Shown one piece after another: positions 2,305 to 27,230 of a stretch of 44,149 bases of DNA; position 1 is the stretch's first letter, and each line of letters opens with the position of its first letter. The position numbers and the translations under genes were made by a program. This DNA is from an uncultured Gammaproteobacteria bacterium (GTDB taxonomy: Bacteria; Patescibacteriota; Microgenomatia; UBA10105; UBA927). The notes beneath the pieces were generated by a model. That model saw only the letters and a list, made by a program, of their open reading frames with translations, did not search any database and had not been told where the DNA came from. The stretch covers positions 376,720 through 420,868 of the forward strand of contig CAZEVT010000001.1 in the NCBI GenBank assembly GCA_964515005.1. Direction: 5' to 3'.

Positions 2305-9216
<6,912 letters not shown>

Positions 9217-9500: not shown

Positions 9501-16568
<7,068 letters not shown>

Positions 16569-19853: not shown

Positions 19854-20444
19854 ATGGACATCTTCGCGGTCGTCCGGGAGTATAAGATCCCGCTTGTGCT
19901 TGCGGCGGGAAGCGTATTCTTCATTGTTTTTTCCCTTGTATTGCTTGTCAAATCAATCCAAACAACCACTCCGATCCGGTTTTCAGAAGACGCAGCGACT
20001 ACCAGCTCGACCTTGGGAGCCATGACCGTGGCCGTCGATGTGGAGGGCGCCGTGATTCGACCGGGTCTTTATACGTTGTCTGCCGGAAGCCGCGTCGAGG
20101 ACGCCATAGTTGCCGCGGGTGGACTTTCGACAGACGCCGATCTTGCGGCCCTTGCCAAAACCATAAACCGCGCGGCGAAGGTAGTGGACGGCGGGAAGGT
20201 CTATATCCCAGATAAATCAGATCCTCAATCGCAAGGCTCCGGTATAGATTCAGGGCTGCAAAACGGACTAATTTCTGTAAACGCATCTTCTCAGTCCGAG
20301 TTGGAGGGGCTTCCCGGGGTAGGACCGGTGACCGCCAAAAAGATTATCGACAACCGGCCGTATCAGACACTGGAAGAACTGGTTGGGAAGAAGGCTGTCG
20401 GGACAGCCTTGTTTGAAAAGATCAAAGCACAGCTGACTCTATGA
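19854..20444 (+). CDS. comEA: Competence DNA receptor ComEA (TM + SLBB + HhH)
   Basis: VDVEGAVIRPGLY..GSRVEDAIVAAGG; ISVNASSQSELEGLPGVGPVTAKKII. Confidence 0.95.
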   Translation: MDIFAVVREYKIPLVLAAGSVFFIVFSLVLLVKSIQTTTPIRFSEDAATTSSTLGAMTVAVDVEGAVIRPGLYTLSAGSRVEDAIVAAGGLSTDADLAALAKTINRAAKVVDGGKVYIPDKSDPQSQGSGIDSGLQNGLISVNASSQSELEGLPGVGPVTAKKIIDNRPYQTLEELVGKKAVGTALFEKIKAQLTL

Positions 20445-21247
20445 TTACGGTTGCCGACTTTAGCGCCGTCGTGAACCAGGTTCTTCCGGAGCCCCACGCA
20501 GGCTTATTAAATGGCATCATCTTCGGCACGAAAGCATCGCTTTCTAAGGATTTTTTACAGGCCCTGATTACCACCGGTACCCTCCATATCGTCGCATTAT
20601 CCGGCATGAATATATCGATTCTAGTGGGCGTCATGCAAAAAACGCTCCTTCGGGTCGCGCCCAGGCGCGTTACCCACCTCCTTACTATGCTCCTTATTGC
20701 CGGATTCGTCTGGTTTGTGGGACCGACTCCAAGCGTCATTCGGGCCGCAGTGATGGGATCTCTCGTGCTTCTGTCTACAATTTTGGGCCGGCAGAACTGG
20801 ACAATCCTGACTTTTATCCTTACCTGTGGCATCATCCTTCTTGTCAAACCAAGTTGGCTCTTTGACCTTTCGTTTCAACTATCAGCGTTTGCGACCTTAG
20901 GAATTATTTTGTTTGGAAACAACGTGGGGGAGGCAAATCAGAAGACAAATATTTTTTGGCAATTCATTGAAAACGATCTTCGGGTAACCCTTGCCGCGCA
21001 GGTATTTACGATTCCGCTAATTCTCTTTACCTTTGGGAGGATGTCTCTCATTTCCCCTGTCACCAATGTTCTTATTGGTTGGACGATTCCGATTTTGACT
21101 CCGCTCGGGATGCTTATTGCCATAACCGGTTGGATATTTTTGCCGGTCGGACAACTGCTTGCATACGTGGCATGGATGCTTTTACAATATCTCATTGTCG
21201 TTATTAATTTTACTGCCAACATACCGTTTGCAAGCATCGGAAGATGA
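20441..21247 (+). CDS. comEC: ComEC/Rec2 competence (membrane channel) domain protein
   Basis: TGTLHIVALSGMNI, PSVIRAAVM, DLSFQLSAFAT; multi-TM; lacks the N-terminal OB region. Confidence 0.92.
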   Translation: MITVADFSAVVNQVLPEPHAGLLNGIIFGTKASLSKDFLQALITTGTLHIVALSGMNISILVGVMQKTLLRVAPRRVTHLLTMLLIAGFVWFVGPTPSVIRAAVMGSLVLLSTILGRQNWTILTFILTCGIILLVKPSWLFDLSFQLSAFATLGIILFGNNVGEANQKTNIFWQFIENDLRVTLAAQVFTIPLILFTFGRMSLISPVTNVLIGWTIPILTPLGMLIAITGWIFLPVGQLLAYVAWMLLQYLIVVINFTANIPFASIGR

Positions 21248-21353: not shown

Positions 21354-22232
21354 ATGTTTAGGTTACGCACAGGATACCTCATAAGCGGCATAATTACAGG
21401 CTGCATACTCCTTTTCAATTTCGTGGGGTCCTTGCCCGACGGAAAACTCCATATTTTCTTTTGTGATGTCGGTCAGGGCGATGCAGCATACATAAAATTT
21501 CCGGATGGTCGGGATATGGTGGTGGACGGCGGACCCAACGATCAGGTCCTCGGATGTCTTGGAAAATATATGCCGTTTTGGGACCGGCATATTGACATGG
21601 TCCTCATGACGCATCCCCAAAAAGATCACATGCAGGGCTTGATTTCCGTGTTTGAGCGCTATTCAGTGGACTATTTTGTCAGAAGCGACGTCGGGAACAC
21701 AACAGAAGGCTATCAAAAGCTTCTTGCCGTAGTTACCCAGAAGAGAATCCTGGTCAAATATATGACACGGGGCGAGCATATAGCCTTGAGTGATTCGTCA
21801 CTGAAGTTCGTGTGGCCGTCTGGAGATCAAATTGCCAAAGGGGAGAGCAGCGTGTTGGGTGCAACAACCGGTGACCTGAACGATTACAGCCTGGTTTTTA
21901 CCCTTCGGTACGGCGCATTTGACGCGCTGTTTACCGGAGACGCGGATATCAGGGTGGAAGGAAACTATACCGGCGACCCGTTATCAGACGAACGGGTTGA
22001 AGTGCTCAAGGTTCCGCACCATGGGAGTAAAACAGGTATGAACAAGGCGTTTGTTGACTGGGTCCGCCCGGAGCTTGCCGTCATTTCCGTCGGCAAAAAC
22101 AACTACGGCCACCCATCGAAGGAAGCTCTTGATCTGCTACAGACTATCGGTGCACGCGTCTTAAGGACGGATCAAGAAGGGGACATCGAGGTGGTGAGCG
22201 ACGGAAAAGATTGGACTGTCGCAATCAACTAA
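21354..22232 (+). CDS. ComEC C-terminal-type metallo-beta-lactamase-fold nuclease (stand-alone)
   Basis: DVGQGD, THPQKDHMQG, LFTGD, KVPHHGS, SVGKNNYGHP, RTDQEG. Confidence 0.92.
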   Translation: MFRLRTGYLISGIITGCILLFNFVGSLPDGKLHIFFCDVGQGDAAYIKFPDGRDMVVDGGPNDQVLGCLGKYMPFWDRHIDMVLMTHPQKDHMQGLISVFERYSVDYFVRSDVGNTTEGYQKLLAVVTQKRILVKYMTRGEHIALSDSSLKFVWPSGDQIAKGESSVLGATTGDLNDYSLVFTLRYGAFDALFTGDADIRVEGNYTGDPLSDERVEVLKVPHHGSKTGMNKAFVDWVRPELAVISVGKNNYGHPSKEALDLLQTIGARVLRTDQEGDIEVVSDGKDWTVAIN

Positions 22233-22579: not shown

Positions 22580-22607
22580 TATTGTTGGAATGATAATTTT
22601 TGCCCCT

Positions 22608-22636
22608 TGACAATACTCATAGAAGATGTATATAAT
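22608..22636 (+). promoter_or_regulatory. Sigma70-type promoter of the T-box leader
   Basis: TTGACA followed at normal spacing by TATAAT (22631-22636). Confidence 0.8.
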
Positions 22637-22662
22637 TATTCTTTGTTCTTGAAAATTGAATA

Positions 22663-22906
22663 GGCGATGATGGTGTCGAGCACCGGAGCCAGCTTCAGAA
22701 GAAAGTCGCCACAAGCGACAAGTACGAAGCATAAATGAGTCAACTCATTTGCTGTCAAGGCTTTTACAGCAGATTTTTTTGTTTAAAAAAACAAAGGGTT
22801 GTAAACAAAGGTGGCACCACGGTGCGAATCCCGCGTAGCGGGACAAACCGTCCTTTCGGGCCTCCATCCCTCTTTAGGGATCGAGGCTTGAGCGGACGGT
22901 TTTTTT
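22663..22906 (+). ncRNA. T-box riboswitch (ultrashort Stem I, transcriptional terminator)
   Basis: K-turn Stem I GGC-GAUGA-UGGUG-[UCGAG]-CACCG-GA-GCC; Stem II with S-turn GCUUC-AGAAGAAA-GUCGC..GCGAC-AAGUAC-GAAGC; Stem III UUUACAGC/GUUGUAAA; antiterminator AAAGG-UGGCACC-ACGG..CCGU-CCUUU; competing terminator AAACCGUCC/GGACGGUUU plus U-tract. Confidence 0.88.
22845..22906 (+). terminator. Intrinsic terminator (attenuator) of the T-box
   Basis: aaaccgtcc...ggacggttttttt enclosing an inner hairpin; mutually exclusive with the antiterminator. Confidence 0.85.
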
Positions 22907-22957
22907 GTGCTTTCGTAGCTATTTCCGAGTCATCGAGGAAAAGCGTACGAAGAACAA

Positions 22958-22984
22958 TCCCTCCGAAGCTTTAGCGAAGGGGGA
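22958..22984. repeat. Short REP-like palindrome (copy A)
   Basis: Reverse complement TCCCCCTTCGCTAAAGCTTCGGAGGGA closely matches TCCCCCTTCGCCAAGGCTTTGGGGGA at 25635-25660. Confidence 0.7.
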
Positions 22985-23045
22985 TGATGGTGAAGTAAGC
23001 ATGGTGTGGGGGTTGTGGAAAAAGTAGTGAAAGGGGGTGAATCAT

Positions 23046-23705
23046 ATGACAAAAACAAAAGAACAAGGAACGACATCTCAAGGCGGGTACCCCGCTCATT
23101 GGTTGGAGGAATTCGCCAAAGTTGAGAGCCAGAAGTTGACTGGTTTTATTACGCCGGTTGCATCTAAAGTGGACGGAACGTTTGCTGGGGGCATCCTGGT
23201 GGTCAAAAAACAAACTCATAACGGAAGCTATTGGGGCTGGATTGATTATCTTCATGTCGAAGAGAAAGAAAAGGGGAATGGTTTAGGAACCGCCCTTGTT
23301 GCAAATGCTATCGATAAAGCAGGATTCAATAAAATGAGTCATCTTGAAGTGATAATACCGTTGTTAAGTTACCCGTTAATGCATGTGTTTTTAAATAATA
23401 ACGGTTTTATTGGATATAAATTATTGGAAAGTTATTTTGGCTCGGAAAATCATGGTTTGTGTATCCAAAAAAATCTTTCTATGGGATGGCATGGTCTTTC
23501 AAAACATGAATACGCAGAAGCTGTTGGGCTTCACCCGTCTACATTTTCAAAAGTCTCGGTTTCTGATTATCAAGCTTTTCAGCACAAAATTGCCGATGGA
23601 CATGTACTCGTTGGTGTTTTTGAGCCAAAAGTCACCGGGCTAGAAAATTCAATAAATCTCTTTATGAAGATACCGAAGGATTTAATTTTGAAAGGAGGTG
23701 AATAA
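23046..23705 (+). CDS. GNAT-family N-acetyltransferase
   Basis: Motif A IDYLHVEEKEKGNGLGTALV; SD GGGGGTGA before ATG 23046. Confidence 0.8.
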   Translation: MTKTKEQGTTSQGGYPAHWLEEFAKVESQKLTGFITPVASKVDGTFAGGILVVKKQTHNGSYWGWIDYLHVEEKEKGNGLGTALVANAIDKAGFNKMSHLEVIIPLLSYPLMHVFLNNNGFIGYKLLESYFGSENHGLCIQKNLSMGWHGLSKHEYAEAVGLHPSTFSKVSVSDYQAFQHKIADGHVLVGVFEPKVTGLENSINLFMKIPKDLILKGGE

Positions 23706-24513
23706 ATATGAAAGATTTACCAAAACGATTTTACAAAGCGATACTGAAAAAGCTGAGCTTTTAAAAGGAATGACTATCAGTTCATGGTCGTCCGAGGAAG
23801 CTCCGGCCCTTTATGAGGGGCTTGAGCATCCGAATTGGGCACCATGGCTGGAAGCGGGAATATCCTCCCTTGCAGGGAGGGCAAAAGTATTCCCGGAAGG
23901 GCAATTGGTGATGAAAGATGGGCAAGGCCACTATGCCGCCAGCTTATCCTTAAATCAGATCAATTGGGACGGAATCATTGAACATCTGCCGAGTTGGGAC
24001 GATGTAGCAGGAGATCCTACGGATTACAGTAAGACCTATACGCCAAATGGTAACACGCTCGTCTTGCTTTCGATGAATGTCGCGCCGGAGTTCAAAGGAT
24101 TGCAGCTTCCCAGCAAGATGATAGATGCAGCAAAACAGGTCGCGAACACGCTCGGCGTTTCCCATTTGATCGGATCATTTCGTCCAAGCGGCTATGGCGA
24201 AATTAAAAAGGGCGTGCCAGATTTAGAGTTTGAAACATACTGTATGTTGAAAAAATCCTTTTCAGACAAGCCTATTGATCATTGGTTGGGAAGTTTATGG
24301 CACATGGGCATGAAGATGCTGGAGGTAGACCATAAGGCTATGACTGTTATGGTGCCTATGACGGAATTTGAAAGTTATAAACAGGCCGATTGGAAAGAAG
24401 TAAAGCCGGGAATTTGGGAATGTGGCGAGGTGGGTCAGTGGAACGTGGATGCGGAGTCTGGCACTGCAACGTATCAGGAAAGTAATGTGTGGGGATCATT
24501 ACCCCTCACATAA
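23698..24513 (+). CDS. GNAT-fold protein (start uncertain)
   Basis: FPEGQLV, LSMNVAPEFKGLQLPSKMIDAAK (motif A-like), RPSGY, PIDHWL, YQESNVW. Confidence 0.75.
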   Translation: MNKYERFTKTILQSDTEKAELLKGMTISSWSSEEAPALYEGLEHPNWAPWLEAGISSLAGRAKVFPEGQLVMKDGQGHYAASLSLNQINWDGIIEHLPSWDDVAGDPTDYSKTYTPNGNTLVLLSMNVAPEFKGLQLPSKMIDAAKQVANTLGVSHLIGSFRPSGYGEIKKGVPDLEFETYCMLKKSFSDKPIDHWLGSLWHMGMKMLEVDHKAMTVMVPMTEFESYKQADWKEVKPGIWECGEVGQWNVDAESGTATYQESNVWGSLPLT

Positions 24514-24562
24514 AGGGAGGTGGGCAAGCGGGGTGAGGCTAACCCCAATTGCTCAAAAATAT

Positions 24563-25261
24563 ATGAAAAAACAATGGTTTACGGTAAAAAAAATTCGTCC
24601 GCAGCTCTATGCTCTGGCGGAATTTGGCCATTTCGAAAAAGTGGTTTCGTACCTTGTGGTTGGAAAGACTGAAGCCTTTCTCGTAGATACGGGAATGGGC
24701 TACACTGATATACACAAGGCTATTAAGGCTATTACAAAGCTTCCTGTGACTGTACTATTGACTCACGCCCATTGGGATCATATCGGCGGGGTAAAAAAGG
24801 CTGATCGCGTATATGTTTTTGACCACCCGTTTGAAAAAAAGTCTATCACACAATTACATAATAACTATGTGTCAGTTCAGGACAGACAAATCCTGAAAAT
24901 TGGTAATTATACCGTCAAAGTGATCCATACGCCAGGACATAGCCCCGGTTCCACCTGTTATTTTATCAAAAACTTAAATTGGCTGTTTGTAGGCGATACG
25001 CTCTATCCTGGCCCACTTTACGCGCATTTACCTGAGTCGGATCTATATGCGTACACAAAGTCTCTAGCAAGGTTATGTTTGGTTGCCAATAATCAAACCC
25101 TCATTTTACCTGGCCATAACAAGTTGCATTGCAGCTATGCGCTACTTAAAAAGGCTGCCGTCCTTATGAAAAAGGCAGTTAGGACGAAAAAAATGGGTAT
25201 CTCAGAATTGAAGGGTGACGGCTTTTCTATCCTGTTGTCTAAGCTAGGAAAAAGCCTGTGA
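24563..25261 (+). CDS. MBL-fold metallo-hydrolase
   Basis: LVDTG, THAHWDHIGG, HTPGHSPG, GD, PGH; ATG 24563 preferred to the overlapping upstream start. Confidence 0.92.
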   Translation: MKKQWFTVKKIRPQLYALAEFGHFEKVVSYLVVGKTEAFLVDTGMGYTDIHKAIKAITKLPVTVLLTHAHWDHIGGVKKADRVYVFDHPFEKKSITQLHNNYVSVQDRQILKIGNYTVKVIHTPGHSPGSTCYFIKNLNWLFVGDTLYPGPLYAHLPESDLYAYTKSLARLCLVANNQTLILPGHNKLHCSYALLKKAAVLMKKAVRTKKMGISELKGDGFSILLSKLGKSL

Positions 25262-25289: not shown

Positions 25290-27230
25290 ATGAAGAAATA
25301 CATCCAAGCACTGCTTGAAGGAATTCTTGAGTCGATGGGACTTGAGGAAGCAGTCAGTCCACAGGTTTCGGTTCCGGAAAATCCGGTCCACGGGGACTAC
25401 ACCACGAACGTTGCAATGCTTCTTGCGGGGGAGTTGAAAAAATCGCCGCTGAAAATCGCAGAAGACCTAAAAGGTATGATCCAAAAAGATCAAACTGTAT
25501 CACGTGCGGGAATTGTCGACCGTGTGGAAATAGCGCCCCCAGGCTTCCTAAATCTGTTTCTCTCCGAGGCTAATCTTATCAGTCAGGTATCGGAAGCGCT
25601 AAAAATGGGCGAGGCATATGGTTCTGTGATGAAATCCCCCTTCGCCAAGGCTTTGGGGGACGAGGTGAAGCCAAAAAAGACCCTCGAAAAAGGCAAGAAA
25701 ACAGAAGAAGAAATAGCAGGTTTCACGGATAGGCAATATACCTCAAAACAGAGCAAAAAAGACCGCCAAATTTCCCGTAAATCCGCCGTACCGGAAAATT
25801 TAGCCCGTCAAAACAATAAAAACGAGGTAAATGGTATAGGCGAATTAATTCCCGAAGGGGCAAAAAAGAGAATTATGATAGAGTTTGCCGACCCCAATCC
25901 TTTTAAAGAAATTCACATCGGTCATGTCCGAAACATAGCCCTTGGCGAAAGTTTTTGCAGGCTTTTGGAATCGCAGGGGAATGAAGTCCGTCGGGCAAAC
26001 TATGAAGGCGATGTCGGACTGCATGTTGCCAAGAGTCTGTGGGGTCTTGAAAGACTTGGGAAAGACGGCGTAGACATCAGTGGAGTGGGATTAGATACTC
26101 AAGGGAAAGCAGCTCTCCTGGGGCGGGCCTATGCTGTCGGGAGCAAGGCGTTTGAAGACAATGCATCGGCGAAGGAAGAGATGATTGGGGTAAACAAGAA
26201 ACTATACGCGATGGACGAGGGAATCATTGCTCCTTGGAGGCGCGGCCGCCAGTGGAGCCTGGACTACTTTGAAACCGTCTATGGCCGCCTCGGCACGCAC
26301 TTTGACCGGTATTACTTTGAGTCTGAAGTGGCGCCAATAGGCGCTGCATTGGTTCAAAAGCACCTTGATGACGGCATTTTTGAAAAAAGCGAGGGCGCAA
26401 TCGTCTATCGCGGTGAAAAAGTCGGCCTCCACACACGGGTGTTTGTGACGAAAGAGCATTATGCCACGTATGAAGCCAAAGATTTAGCCTTGGCGCCGCT
26501 GAAATACTCCGAATGGCCCTATGATAGCTCGATTATCATGACCGGCAATGAGCAGTCGGAGTACTTTAAGGTCATGCTGGCGGCACTTGCCGAGATTAAT
26601 CCCGAACTAGCCTCAAGAACGCGACATATACCCTTTGGGATGGTGCGGCTGACTACCGGCAAAATGTCTTCACGTACAGGGGCTGTCATCACTGCCGACT
26701 GGCTCACAGAAGAAGCTAAAAAGCGTATCTATACCATTCTGGAAAATAATAAGTCAAACTATAGCAAGATAGAAAAAGATGACATTGCTGAAAAAGCCGC
26801 AATAGGGGCGATTAAGTACTCTATGCTTCGGGTAAATGCGATCAGTGATATAGCGTTTGACATAGAAGCATCGGTATCATTTGAGGGGGATAGCGGACCG
26901 TATCTCCAATATACCTATGCCCGCGCAAAAAGCGTTCTTCGTAAGGCTGGACAGGGTACAGGGGATAAGGTACAGGGTTTAAACCCTGAAGAACGGATTC
27001 TCGCCCGATCCATCATGCAATTCTCTGATGTCGTGTCTGAAGCGGCTGAAAACTTTGCACCAAATACTATTTGTACCTATCTATTTCATCTGGCCCAGCA
27101 GTTCAATCTGTTTTATGCGAAGCACCCGATTGTCGGAAATGATCTTCGACTCACACTCACTGCCGCTACAGCCCAGGTTCTAAAAAACGGTTTGTATCTT
27201 TTGGGAATAGAAACCATGGAAAAGATGTAA
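25290..27230 (+). CDS. argS: Arginine--tRNA ligase with a large insertion
   Basis: HGDYTTN, PGFLN, EFADPNPFKEIHIGHVRN, KMSSRTG, FEGDSGPYLQYTYAR, C-terminal LGIETMEKM. Confidence 0.97.
   Translation: MKKYIQALLEGILESMGLEEAVSPQVSVPENPVHGDYTTNVAMLLAGELKKSPLKIAEDLKGMIQKDQTVSRAGIVDRVEIAPPGFLNLFLSEANLISQVSEALKMGEAYGSVMKSPFAKALGDEVKPKKTLEKGKKTEEEIAGFTDRQYTSKQSKKDRQISRKSAVPENLARQNNKNEVNGIGELIPEGAKKRIMIEFADPNPFKEIHIGHVRNIALGESFCRLLESQGNEVRRANYEGDVGLHVAKSLWGLERLGKDGVDISGVGLDTQGKAALLGRAYAVGSKAFEDNASAKEEMIGVNKKLYAMDEGIIAPWRRGRQWSLDYFETVYGRLGTHFDRYYFESEVAPIGAALVQKHLDDGIFEKSEGAIVYRGEKVGLHTRVFVTKEHYATYEAKDLALAPLKYSEWPYDSSIIMTGNEQSEYFKVMLAALAEINPELASRTRHIPFGMVRLTTGKMSSRTGAVITADWLTEEAKKRIYTILENNKSNYSKIEKDDIAEKAAIGAIKYSMLRVNAISDIAFDIEASVSFEGDSGPYLQYTYARAKSVLRKAGQGTGDKVQGLNPEERILARSIMQFSDVVSEAAENFAPNTICTYLFHLAQQFNLFYAKHPIVGNDLRLTLTAATAQVLKNGLYLLGIETMEKM
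25635..25660. repeat. Short REP-like palindrome (copy B), in frame within argS
   Basis: TCCCCC-TTCGCCAAGGCTTT-GGGGGA, encoding SPFAKALGD. Confidence 0.7.

Follow-up and report, generated by a model that had tools for sequence, protein, structure and literature searches.

The stretch of DNA analysed here, referred to as the window, spans 44,149 nucleotides (nt) of contig CAZEVT010000001.1 (assembly GCA_964515005.1). At positions 22663–22906, reading on the plus strand, lies a leader RNA followed by four closely packed genes, which encode a GNAT-family acetyltransferase, a 271-aa protein, a metallo-beta-lactamase (MBL)-fold hydrolase and arginyl-tRNA synthetase (ArgRS, encoded by argS) (Table 1). 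We propose that this leader is an arginine-specific T-box riboswitch which controls readthrough into the four-gene operon, ending in the only argS of the genome, a reading to which we give a probability of roughly 0.84.

The genes on the 5' side of the leader are leuS, comEA and comEC. A sigma-70-type promoter precedes the leader, and a similar TTGACA promoter is present at the leaders of homologues. The first gene has an ATG at 23047 behind a GGGGG ribosome-binding site, while homologues of the second are followed, in the relatives' genomes G015 and G070, by an MBL gene and then argS, all behind the same T-box (G000 denotes the genome studied here, other G numbers the genomes of relatives and L numbers individual loci). 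The fourth gene is the sole PF00750 match in the genome and hence the sole argS copy found. An earlier annotation made from the letters alone (hereafter the sequence-only reading) had placed argS downstream of the leader; the two do belong to one operon, but argS is its fourth gene, 2.4 kb away, and not adjacent. The same annotation had guessed at a genome like those of the Candidate Phyla Radiation (CPR), rightly so, since the closest ArgRS loci among named genomes are those of Candidatus Gottesmanbacteria; the host genome measures 0.96 Mb (14 contigs) at 98% completeness, which agrees with this.

Table 1 Features of the leader and its operon, in window coordinates.
Feature	Position	Strand	Description and support
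Promoter, sigma-70 type	22607..22636	+	TTGACA 22607–22612, 18-nt spacer, TATAAT 22631–22636; 12/12 consensus matches
Ultrashort Stem I	22663..22690	+	28 nt; sequence, RF00230 alignment, folding
Stem II	22692..22730	+	Lower helix GCUUC/GAAGC, S-turn internal loop, upper hairpin 22705–22719; RF00230 alignment, covariation
Linker	22731..22739	+	AUAAAU plus GAG (purine-A-G motif) at the 5' foot of Stem III
Stem III domain	22741..22801	+	Branched; covariation helix 6, RNAfold of 22737–22806 alone
Antiterminator	22807..22856	+	RF00230 alignment, folding (−17.2 kcal/mol), covariation helices 8–9
Intrinsic terminator	22846..22906	+	Near-perfect 56-nt hairpin 22846–22901 plus U-run 22900–22906 (seven U); −38.9 kcal/mol
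Second conserved structured leader RNA	22907..23036	+	From terminator to first gene; two-sided helix changes in relatives
Gene 1, GNAT-family acetyltransferase	23037..23705	+	222 aa; PF00583, 28 bits
Gene 2, no family match	23698..24513	+	271 aa; homologues in G015 and G070
Gene 3, MBL-fold hydrolase	24422..25261	+	279 aa
Gene 4, argS, arginyl-tRNA synthetase	25290..27230	+	646 aa; TIGR00456, 378 bits (cut-off 261.65)

Conservation and anatomy of the leader

No match was found in the window when Rfam was scanned at the gathering level. In E-value mode (1-kb search), the T-box family RF00230 aligned from its first to its last model position with 22658–22858, at 30.5 bits (E 9.4e-5), and it scored 23.8–36.7 bits on six homologue loci, which bears out the sequence-only reading in its suspicion that standard models score this RNA poorly. 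The score is low because the alignment lacks 71 Stem I positions of the consensus. The distal platform (AG bulge and distal loop, for stacking on the tRNA elbow) is absent. Folding of the 266-nt region compared with shuffled sequences gave z = −5.8, and BLAST with the 271-nt leader returned matches in 29 of 61 genomes, including G000.

We supplied a structure and built a covariance model on two relatives; this model found exactly one copy in each of 52 of the 81 family genomes. It found copies in 15 of the 151 genomes of a class-level sample, seven of these 15 belonging to the family, and in none of 150 other genomes sampled from the phylum. When 54 copies were aligned to the model's own structure, a fit which favours pairing counts, 96.6% of cells held standard pairs and 36 of the 39 pairs had changed on both sides; covariation among CPR homologues, which the sequence-only reading had proposed looking for, is thus present. 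The covariation score was 0.679, versus 0.193 in 500 shuffles, none of which scored as high, and 0.04–0.14 when partners were slid by 1–3 columns. An independent MAFFT/RNAalifold analysis of five sequences recovered Stem I, Stem II and hairpin a of the Stem III domain, with 16 of 32 pairs compensated. By the features that define the mechanism the leader is, on sequence grounds, a T-box, even though it falls below the Rfam threshold and is without two canonical modules.

Sequence reading and folding located every part that the sequence-only reading had listed, each in its assigned place. Stem I is made up of a GGC/GCC base helix, a GAUGA...GGA K-turn motif, a GGUG/CACC helix and the apical loop UCGAG, within which CGA (22677–22679) is the putative specifier and G (22680) the purine next to it. 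The K-turn, identified at the sequence level, aligns as GAUGA/GGAGC with the RF00230 consensus UGA/GGAGC and is preserved in most homologues. The ultrashort Stem I with its specifier in the terminal loop, anticipated by the sequence-only reading, recurs in 31 of the 54 copies (4-bp helix, 5-nt apical loop). In 21 others Stem I is of an intermediate form, laid out as helix, AAA, a distal hairpin devoid of platform motifs, C-UCGAG and helix, and two copies are aberrant. The 4-bp helix varies among homologues between GGUG/CACC, GGAU/AUCC, CCAU/AUGG, CCGU/ACGG and GCAU/AUGC. Degenerate copies were seen in two relatives. In G004, which is of the same genus (L112 501–711, minus strand), the copy is without a specifier and has only the 5' half of Stem I and only the 3' half of Stem II, but the remainder is preserved ahead of argH; in G066 (L105 201–352) the 5' strand of the Stem I helix has been lost.

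Stem II carries an S-turn motif formed by GAAGAAA (22698–22704) on its 5' side and AGUA (22721–22724) on its 3' side. Its helices (3–5 of the covariation analysis) are 95–100% paired, with compensatory changes in 10 of 10 pairs. At the 5' foot of Stem III stands a purine-A-G (RAG) motif, the AG of which is invariant among aligned relatives and the role of which is treated in PMC11297988. The purine-A-G on the 5' side of Stem III and the A-rich foot on its 3' side match the Stem III description of that paper.

The Stem III domain is closed by a long-range helix between 22741–22746 and 22796–22801 (helix 6), which has compensatory changes in 6 of 6 pairs and 96% of its cells paired, and which encloses hairpin a (22748–22773), a U-run and a variable hairpin b (22778–22795). 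The loop of hairpin a bears CUGUCAAGGC (22752–22761), invariant among aligned relatives; the invariant loop within the domain is CAAGGC. A plain hairpin replaces the branched Stem III in G166 (L128) and G015 (L104). The sequence-only reading had also reported a Stem III, and an equivalent does exist, but its true form is the long-range helix; what had been called Stem III was probably the A/U hairpin which that helix encloses together with the CUGUCAAGGC hairpin. A local hairpin, AAAUGAG-UCAA-CUCAUUU (22734–22751), proposed by single-sequence folding and by RNAalifold on five close relatives, was set aside. We preferred the long-range helix because distant relatives cannot form the local hairpin, yet all of them retain the long-range pairing and show changes in both of its strands.

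The leader has no CCGUUA F-box, in contrast to an aspartate T-box of G166 described below, and Stem II ends only 6 nt ahead of the RAG motif and Stem III, from which we infer that the canonical Stem IIA/B pseudoknot is absent. An unconventional pseudoknot may form through the invariant CAAGGC loop, both candidate partners being invariant and offering no covariation. Pairing of this loop with AGCC 3' of Stem I was dropped as a candidate, as G019 has AGGC there and an unchanged loop.

The antiterminator consists of helices A1 (22807–22811/22852–22856) and A2 (22819–22823/22847–22851), an inserted hairpin (22830–22842) and the T-box bulge UGGCACC (22812–22818), of which UGGC is complementary to the tRNA 3' end GCCA; the T-box sequence AAAGGUGGCACCACGG agrees with the RF00230 consensus. 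The 3' strand of the antiterminator is the 5' strand of the terminator (common positions 22846–22856), and since the terminator is the stabler of these overlapping structures by predicted folding energy (Table 1), termination would be the default state. An automated test found a hairpin and U-run overlapping the antiterminator 3' strand in 47 of 53 homologues, and in the remaining six they lie further downstream, in support of the transcriptional control that the sequence-only reading had proposed. It is hardly conceivable that the 3' hairpin acts instead as a sequestrator in translational control, as in the actinobacterial T-boxes with a short Stem I, given that seven U follow it, that the start codon lies ~140 nt beyond with its own GGGGG ribosome-binding site and that the ribosome-binding site of relatives is outside the hairpin.

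According to the mechanism that we propose, transcription would start at ~22643, and the apical loop of Stem I would present CGA plus purine to the anticodon of tRNA-Arg(UCG). Because Stem I has no distal platform to contact the elbow, tRNA binding presumably depends on Stem II, the S-turn of which would hold the codon-anticodon helix in a clamp, as it does in the Class III T-boxes of actinobacterial ileS. The 3' GCCA of an uncharged tRNA would pair with the UGGC bulge and stabilise the weak antiterminator, allowing RNA polymerase to read through. With the tRNA charged or absent, the stabler 56-nt hairpin and U-run would form, causing termination at ~22906. We infer the tRNA binding, the clamp between Stem I and Stem II and the regulatory outcome.

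Specifier, tRNA fit and regulated genes

CGA followed by a purine is preserved in 52 of the 54 copies while the flanking helix changes. The base 5' of CGA is variable, being C in G042 (CCGAG) and G in G215 (GCGAG), and in family f34 the loop reads UAGAG, in the ultrashort form in G166 and in the intermediate form in G144. AGA belongs to the other arginine codon box and is synonymous with CGA, and the AGA copy of G166 is followed by a gene for a tRNA-binding-domain protein and then by ArgRS. These same four loops exclude the UCG (Ser) frame, although tRNA-Ser(CGA) of this genome has G73 and would be compatible with UGGC. The GAG (Glu) frame fares differently, as GAG is as conserved as CGA and the UCGAA variants of G072 and G077 would still encode Glu (GAA). 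The choice of codon frame therefore rests on gene context, on discriminator fit and on the canonical rule of a codon plus purine next to the helix. The genes downstream are argH, argG, that for ornithine carbamoyltransferase (OTC) and argS, never gltX or serS; A73, a mismatch to UGGC, is found in both tRNA-Glu genes of this genome; and a GAG codon would leave no purine between itself and the helix. We rejected the GAG frame on these grounds, and a working T-box that reads its apical loop in another frame, sensing tRNA-Glu (GAG) or tRNA-Ser (UCG), appears very improbable.

An arginine specifier is further favoured by the tRNA-Arg(UCG) of this genome, which has G73 and an encoded CCA and is thus complementary to UGGC. 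The preference of the sequence-only reading for Arg (CGA) over Ser or Glu is therefore supported by frame variation, the AGA swap, gene context and the contrast between G73 and A73, and its prediction that the C of the bulge implies G73 proved correct. Among the 54 copies the bulge is UGGC in 51 and UGGU in two. In G104, which has UGGU, tRNA-Arg(UCG) has A73, a compensatory change; in G012, UGGU stands against G73, a U-G wobble and not a Watson-Crick pair. Discriminator pairing is thus possible in three of the three genomes examined, with true covariation in one only. BLAST with tRNA-Arg(UCG) of this genome found no tRNA-Arg in G001, G072, G012 or G166; a query with the G104 gene recovered that of G012.

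Two observations on the same subjects are recorded here. An intermediate-type copy in G014 (L089 6501–6717, minus strand) has GUGAG in place of UCGAG, which puts UGA where the specifier would be. ArgRS nonetheless closes its operon, and the G014 genome yielded no conserved terminator hairpin. In G000, where ARAGORN called 46 tRNAs in the genome and none within the window, a tRNA-Arg with anticodon GCG is encoded (contig C1 186623–186699), beside those with CCG, UCG, UCU and CCU. Bacterial tRNA-Arg usually has ACG rather than GCG.

Downstream sequence was available for 47 loci, and within ~6.5 kb on the same strand argH was found in 32 of them, argS in 34 and at least one of the two in 45; both loci with neither are on short contigs. 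The intervening genes, by Pfam, encode argininosuccinate synthase, one or two ornithine carbamoyltransferases, an M20 peptidase, GNAT and a B3/4-domain protein, and the usual regulated unit is T-box, argH, argG, OTC ... argS. The genome studied here departs from this arrangement: argG, argH and OTC were not found in it, and the GNAT, 271-aa and MBL-fold genes ahead of argS replace the arginine biosynthesis genes. This replaced operon content, together with the degenerate copies in G004 and G066, could indicate that the leader is a decaying relic which, after the loss of arginine biosynthesis, no longer senses tRNA and acts as a constitutive partial terminator. Here, however, K-turn, specifier and UGGC bulge are intact, as is every helix, and for an essential, single-copy argS a constitutive terminator as stable as −38.9 kcal/mol would come at a cost. 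Furthermore, across the family genomes T-box and argG occur together in 36, the T-box alone in 16, argG alone in nine and neither in 20, so that 16 of the 52 T-box-bearing genomes retain the element without argG. We consider decay highly improbable.

Short-Stem-I T-boxes detected at the class level, each with a hairpin and U-run after it, extend the codon comparison to other amino acids. The second match of G166 (L134 1501–1671), which does possess CCGUUA, carries AUGACA (GAC plus A, aspartate) as its 6-nt apical loop and precedes an asparaginase-domain gene and an AspRS-type gene. In G167 (L131 1501–1723, minus strand) the loop is CCAGACA (GAC plus A), ahead of a gene for an archaeal-type phosphoenolpyruvate carboxylase. 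In the 89-nt element of G192 (L133 1501–1589), Stem I is short, with a K-turn and the loop AGUGGCAU (GGC plus A); the element also has a UGGA bulge and a terminator but no Stem II, and it lies upstream of a small open reading frame (ORF) and a GlyRS-type gene. At a weak model score of 23 bits, it would be an extremely minimal glycine T-box. The loop codon therefore tracks the downstream gene, a check that the sequence-only reading had suggested.

Elsewhere in G000, contig C2 (24056–24338; L001 1501–1783) carries one canonical T-box with a long Stem I (92 bits, UGGU bulge). After its terminator (L001 ~1840–1940) comes a tRNA-like sequence whose T-arm and acceptor stem are well formed, called by neither ARAGORN nor Rfam, and overlapped by an ORF with weak methyltransferase matches only (L001 1798–2937). 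Within the window, comEC is split into two ORFs (20441–21247 and 21354–22232) separated by a 106-nt gap, one with a Competence domain and the other with an MBL domain, and two neighbouring giant ORFs of 2300 and 2334 aa lie on the minus strand (2305–9207 and 9501–16505).

The terminator hairpin and the RNA that follows it

The 61-nt terminator element of the leader aligns without gaps in 21 relatives, and a model of this hairpin finds one site in each of 69 of the 81 family genomes. At 11 loci (L113–L123; for example L113 229–289, L117 and L118) the hairpin stands alone, without a T-box, immediately behind a homologous promoter; 10 of the 11 have ArgRS downstream, and two copies (in G011 and G031) have no U-run. 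In G010 and G036 the hairpin is at argS, and the T-box is at argH on another contig. These stand-alone copies resemble deletion derivatives of the T-box leader. That they have persisted suggests a possible role for the hairpin itself.

A stronger version of this argument would make the 61-nt hairpin the primary element, as the target of a protein, an RNase III-like nuclease or another factor, with the T-box as an accessory retained in some lineages only, and with control here either dual or mainly hairpin-based. The wider occurrence of the hairpin (69 genomes versus 52 with the T-box), its identical length in the 21 aligned copies, its presence alone behind the promoter and ahead of ArgRS, the two genomes in which it is at argS without the T-box and the copies devoid of a U-run could all be explained in this way. 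However, conservation of the 5' strand is expected from its pairing with the T-box sequence, a hairpin followed by a U-run is a textbook terminator, the stand-alone copies could be recent derivatives by deletion, and no binding protein or motif was identified. We regard a primary role of the hairpin as unlikely.

Between the terminator and the first gene lies a second conserved structured RNA, composed of a hairpin at ~22909–22953 and a helix AUCCCUCC/GGGGGAU at ~22958–22986. Related elements were found 3' of the terminator in at least 13 relatives (examples are L072, L066, L083, L076, L077, L088, L099 and L106), where the hairpin has UUAACGA/GAGUUUA internal-loop motifs and an AUCCNCC/GGNGGAU helix changes on both sides. 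E-value scans matched it to no Rfam family. This RNA may be a further regulatory element, in tandem with the T-box.

Several points weigh against the arginine T-box reading. No public RNA run is listed as covering the locus. The RF00230 score of 30.5 bits is a third of the gathering threshold of 93 bits, and the alignment behind the covariation analysis was fitted to the structure of the model itself. The GAG/GAA (Glu) triplet of the apical loop is conserved synonymously, as CGA is, and the wobble in G012 leaves the discriminator test thin. Moreover, transcriptional T-boxes are said to need the elbow platform for fast capture of tRNA (PMC7583486), and this RNA has none. Finally, the terminator hairpin persists without the T-box upstream of argS in relatives, and may have a second function.

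Comparison with known T-boxes

Four T-box classes have been defined. Class III depends on Stem II and combines a short Stem I with a specifier placed in an apical loop of five or six nucleotides; Class IV is marked by a Stem I of intermediate size. Actinobacterial ileS leaders serve as the examples of both, which "mostly regulate translation initiation" (PMC10482949). According to PMC7583486, transcriptional T-boxes generally require a long Stem I with platform, unlike translational ones. In current accounts, a long Stem I and platform go together with fast, kinetic termination, whereas the slower translational control seen in Actinobacteria goes with a short Stem I (PMC7583486, PMC10482949). 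In the TBDB database the class II model was searched only in Actinobacteria and in class I matches with a truncated Stem I (PMC7778990), and the CPR leaders described here score too low to have been class I matches. Arginine T-boxes on argS are known in Firmicutes, for example at one of the argS copies of Bacillus cereus (PMC2494555). In the limited literature that we searched, work on ultrashort or short Stem I was confined to actinobacterial studies and reviews, and no paper linked a T-box to Patescibacteria, the Candidate Phyla Radiation or Microgenomates, an earlier transcriptional example of Class III being possible.

A stripped-down Stem I combined with a transcription terminator is a pairing so far treated as an exception, and a conserved, covarying family of this kind breaks the link between architecture and output, as it joins Class III/IV-type decoding to a strong terminator, without a IIA/B pseudoknot and in genomes of ~1 Mb. 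With ~150–200 nt, these leaders offer a natural minimal scaffold for asking what co-transcriptional tRNA capture requires. They also imply that annotation at Rfam thresholds misses T-box regulation in CPR genomes, and they add regulatory evidence suggesting that these reduced organisms may monitor tRNA-Arg charging to control arginine synthesis and argS.

A broader proposal, which we hold tentatively and with more doubt than confidence, is that one CPR class (Gottesmanbacteria and neighbouring families) evolved its own series of minimal terminating T-boxes, with the specifier in an apical loop or side bulge and with neither elbow platform nor IIA/B pseudoknot. This series would read Arg (CGA/AGA) and Asp (GAC), and would include the 89-nt Gly element that has neither Stem II nor platform. 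As part of the same proposal, the leader in the window would be a three-part tandem control region, in which the 61-nt hairpin and the conserved RNA that follows it are separate regulatory modules. If so, co-transcriptional tRNA sensing would need much less RNA than current models assume.

Among known systems, the leader is closest in its decoding domain to the Class III T-boxes of Nocardia farcinica and Mycobacterium tuberculosis ileS. With them it shares a short Stem I without platform, a basal K-turn, an apical-loop specifier (of penta- or hexanucleotide loop size) with a purine after it, an S-turn in Stem II and a UGGN T-box bulge. Unlike them, it has a terminator instead of a Shine-Dalgarno sequestrator, and it appears to read Arg (CGA, with AGA in relatives) and to serve arginine genes, not Ile and ileS. 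It also has no recognisable F-box or IIA/B pseudoknot, the hinge and backstop on Stem II in Class III, the absence of which is judged here from sequence and covariation. In place of these there are a 6-nt linker and a branched Stem III, and the host is a Gottesmanbacteria-like CPR bacterium and not an actinobacterium. The intermediate Stem I of Class IV (Actinomyces odontolyticus ileS) differs from the ultrashort form in the window, as do its specificity, expression platform and host. With Class I, of the Bacillus subtilis tyrS type, the leader has in common the antiterminator/terminator switch, the Stem II S-turn, the T-box sequence and the control of aminoacyl-tRNA synthetase and biosynthesis genes, but it has neither the long Stem I with interdigitated T-loop platform nor the IIA/B pseudoknot of that class. 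The Class II glycine T-box of B. subtilis glyQS is likewise reduced and transcriptional, yet it has a long Stem I and no Stem II, the reverse of what is seen here. We conclude that the leader is best described as a predicted combination of a Class III/IV-like decoding domain with a transcription terminator, probably specific for tRNA-Arg, in a CPR lineage.

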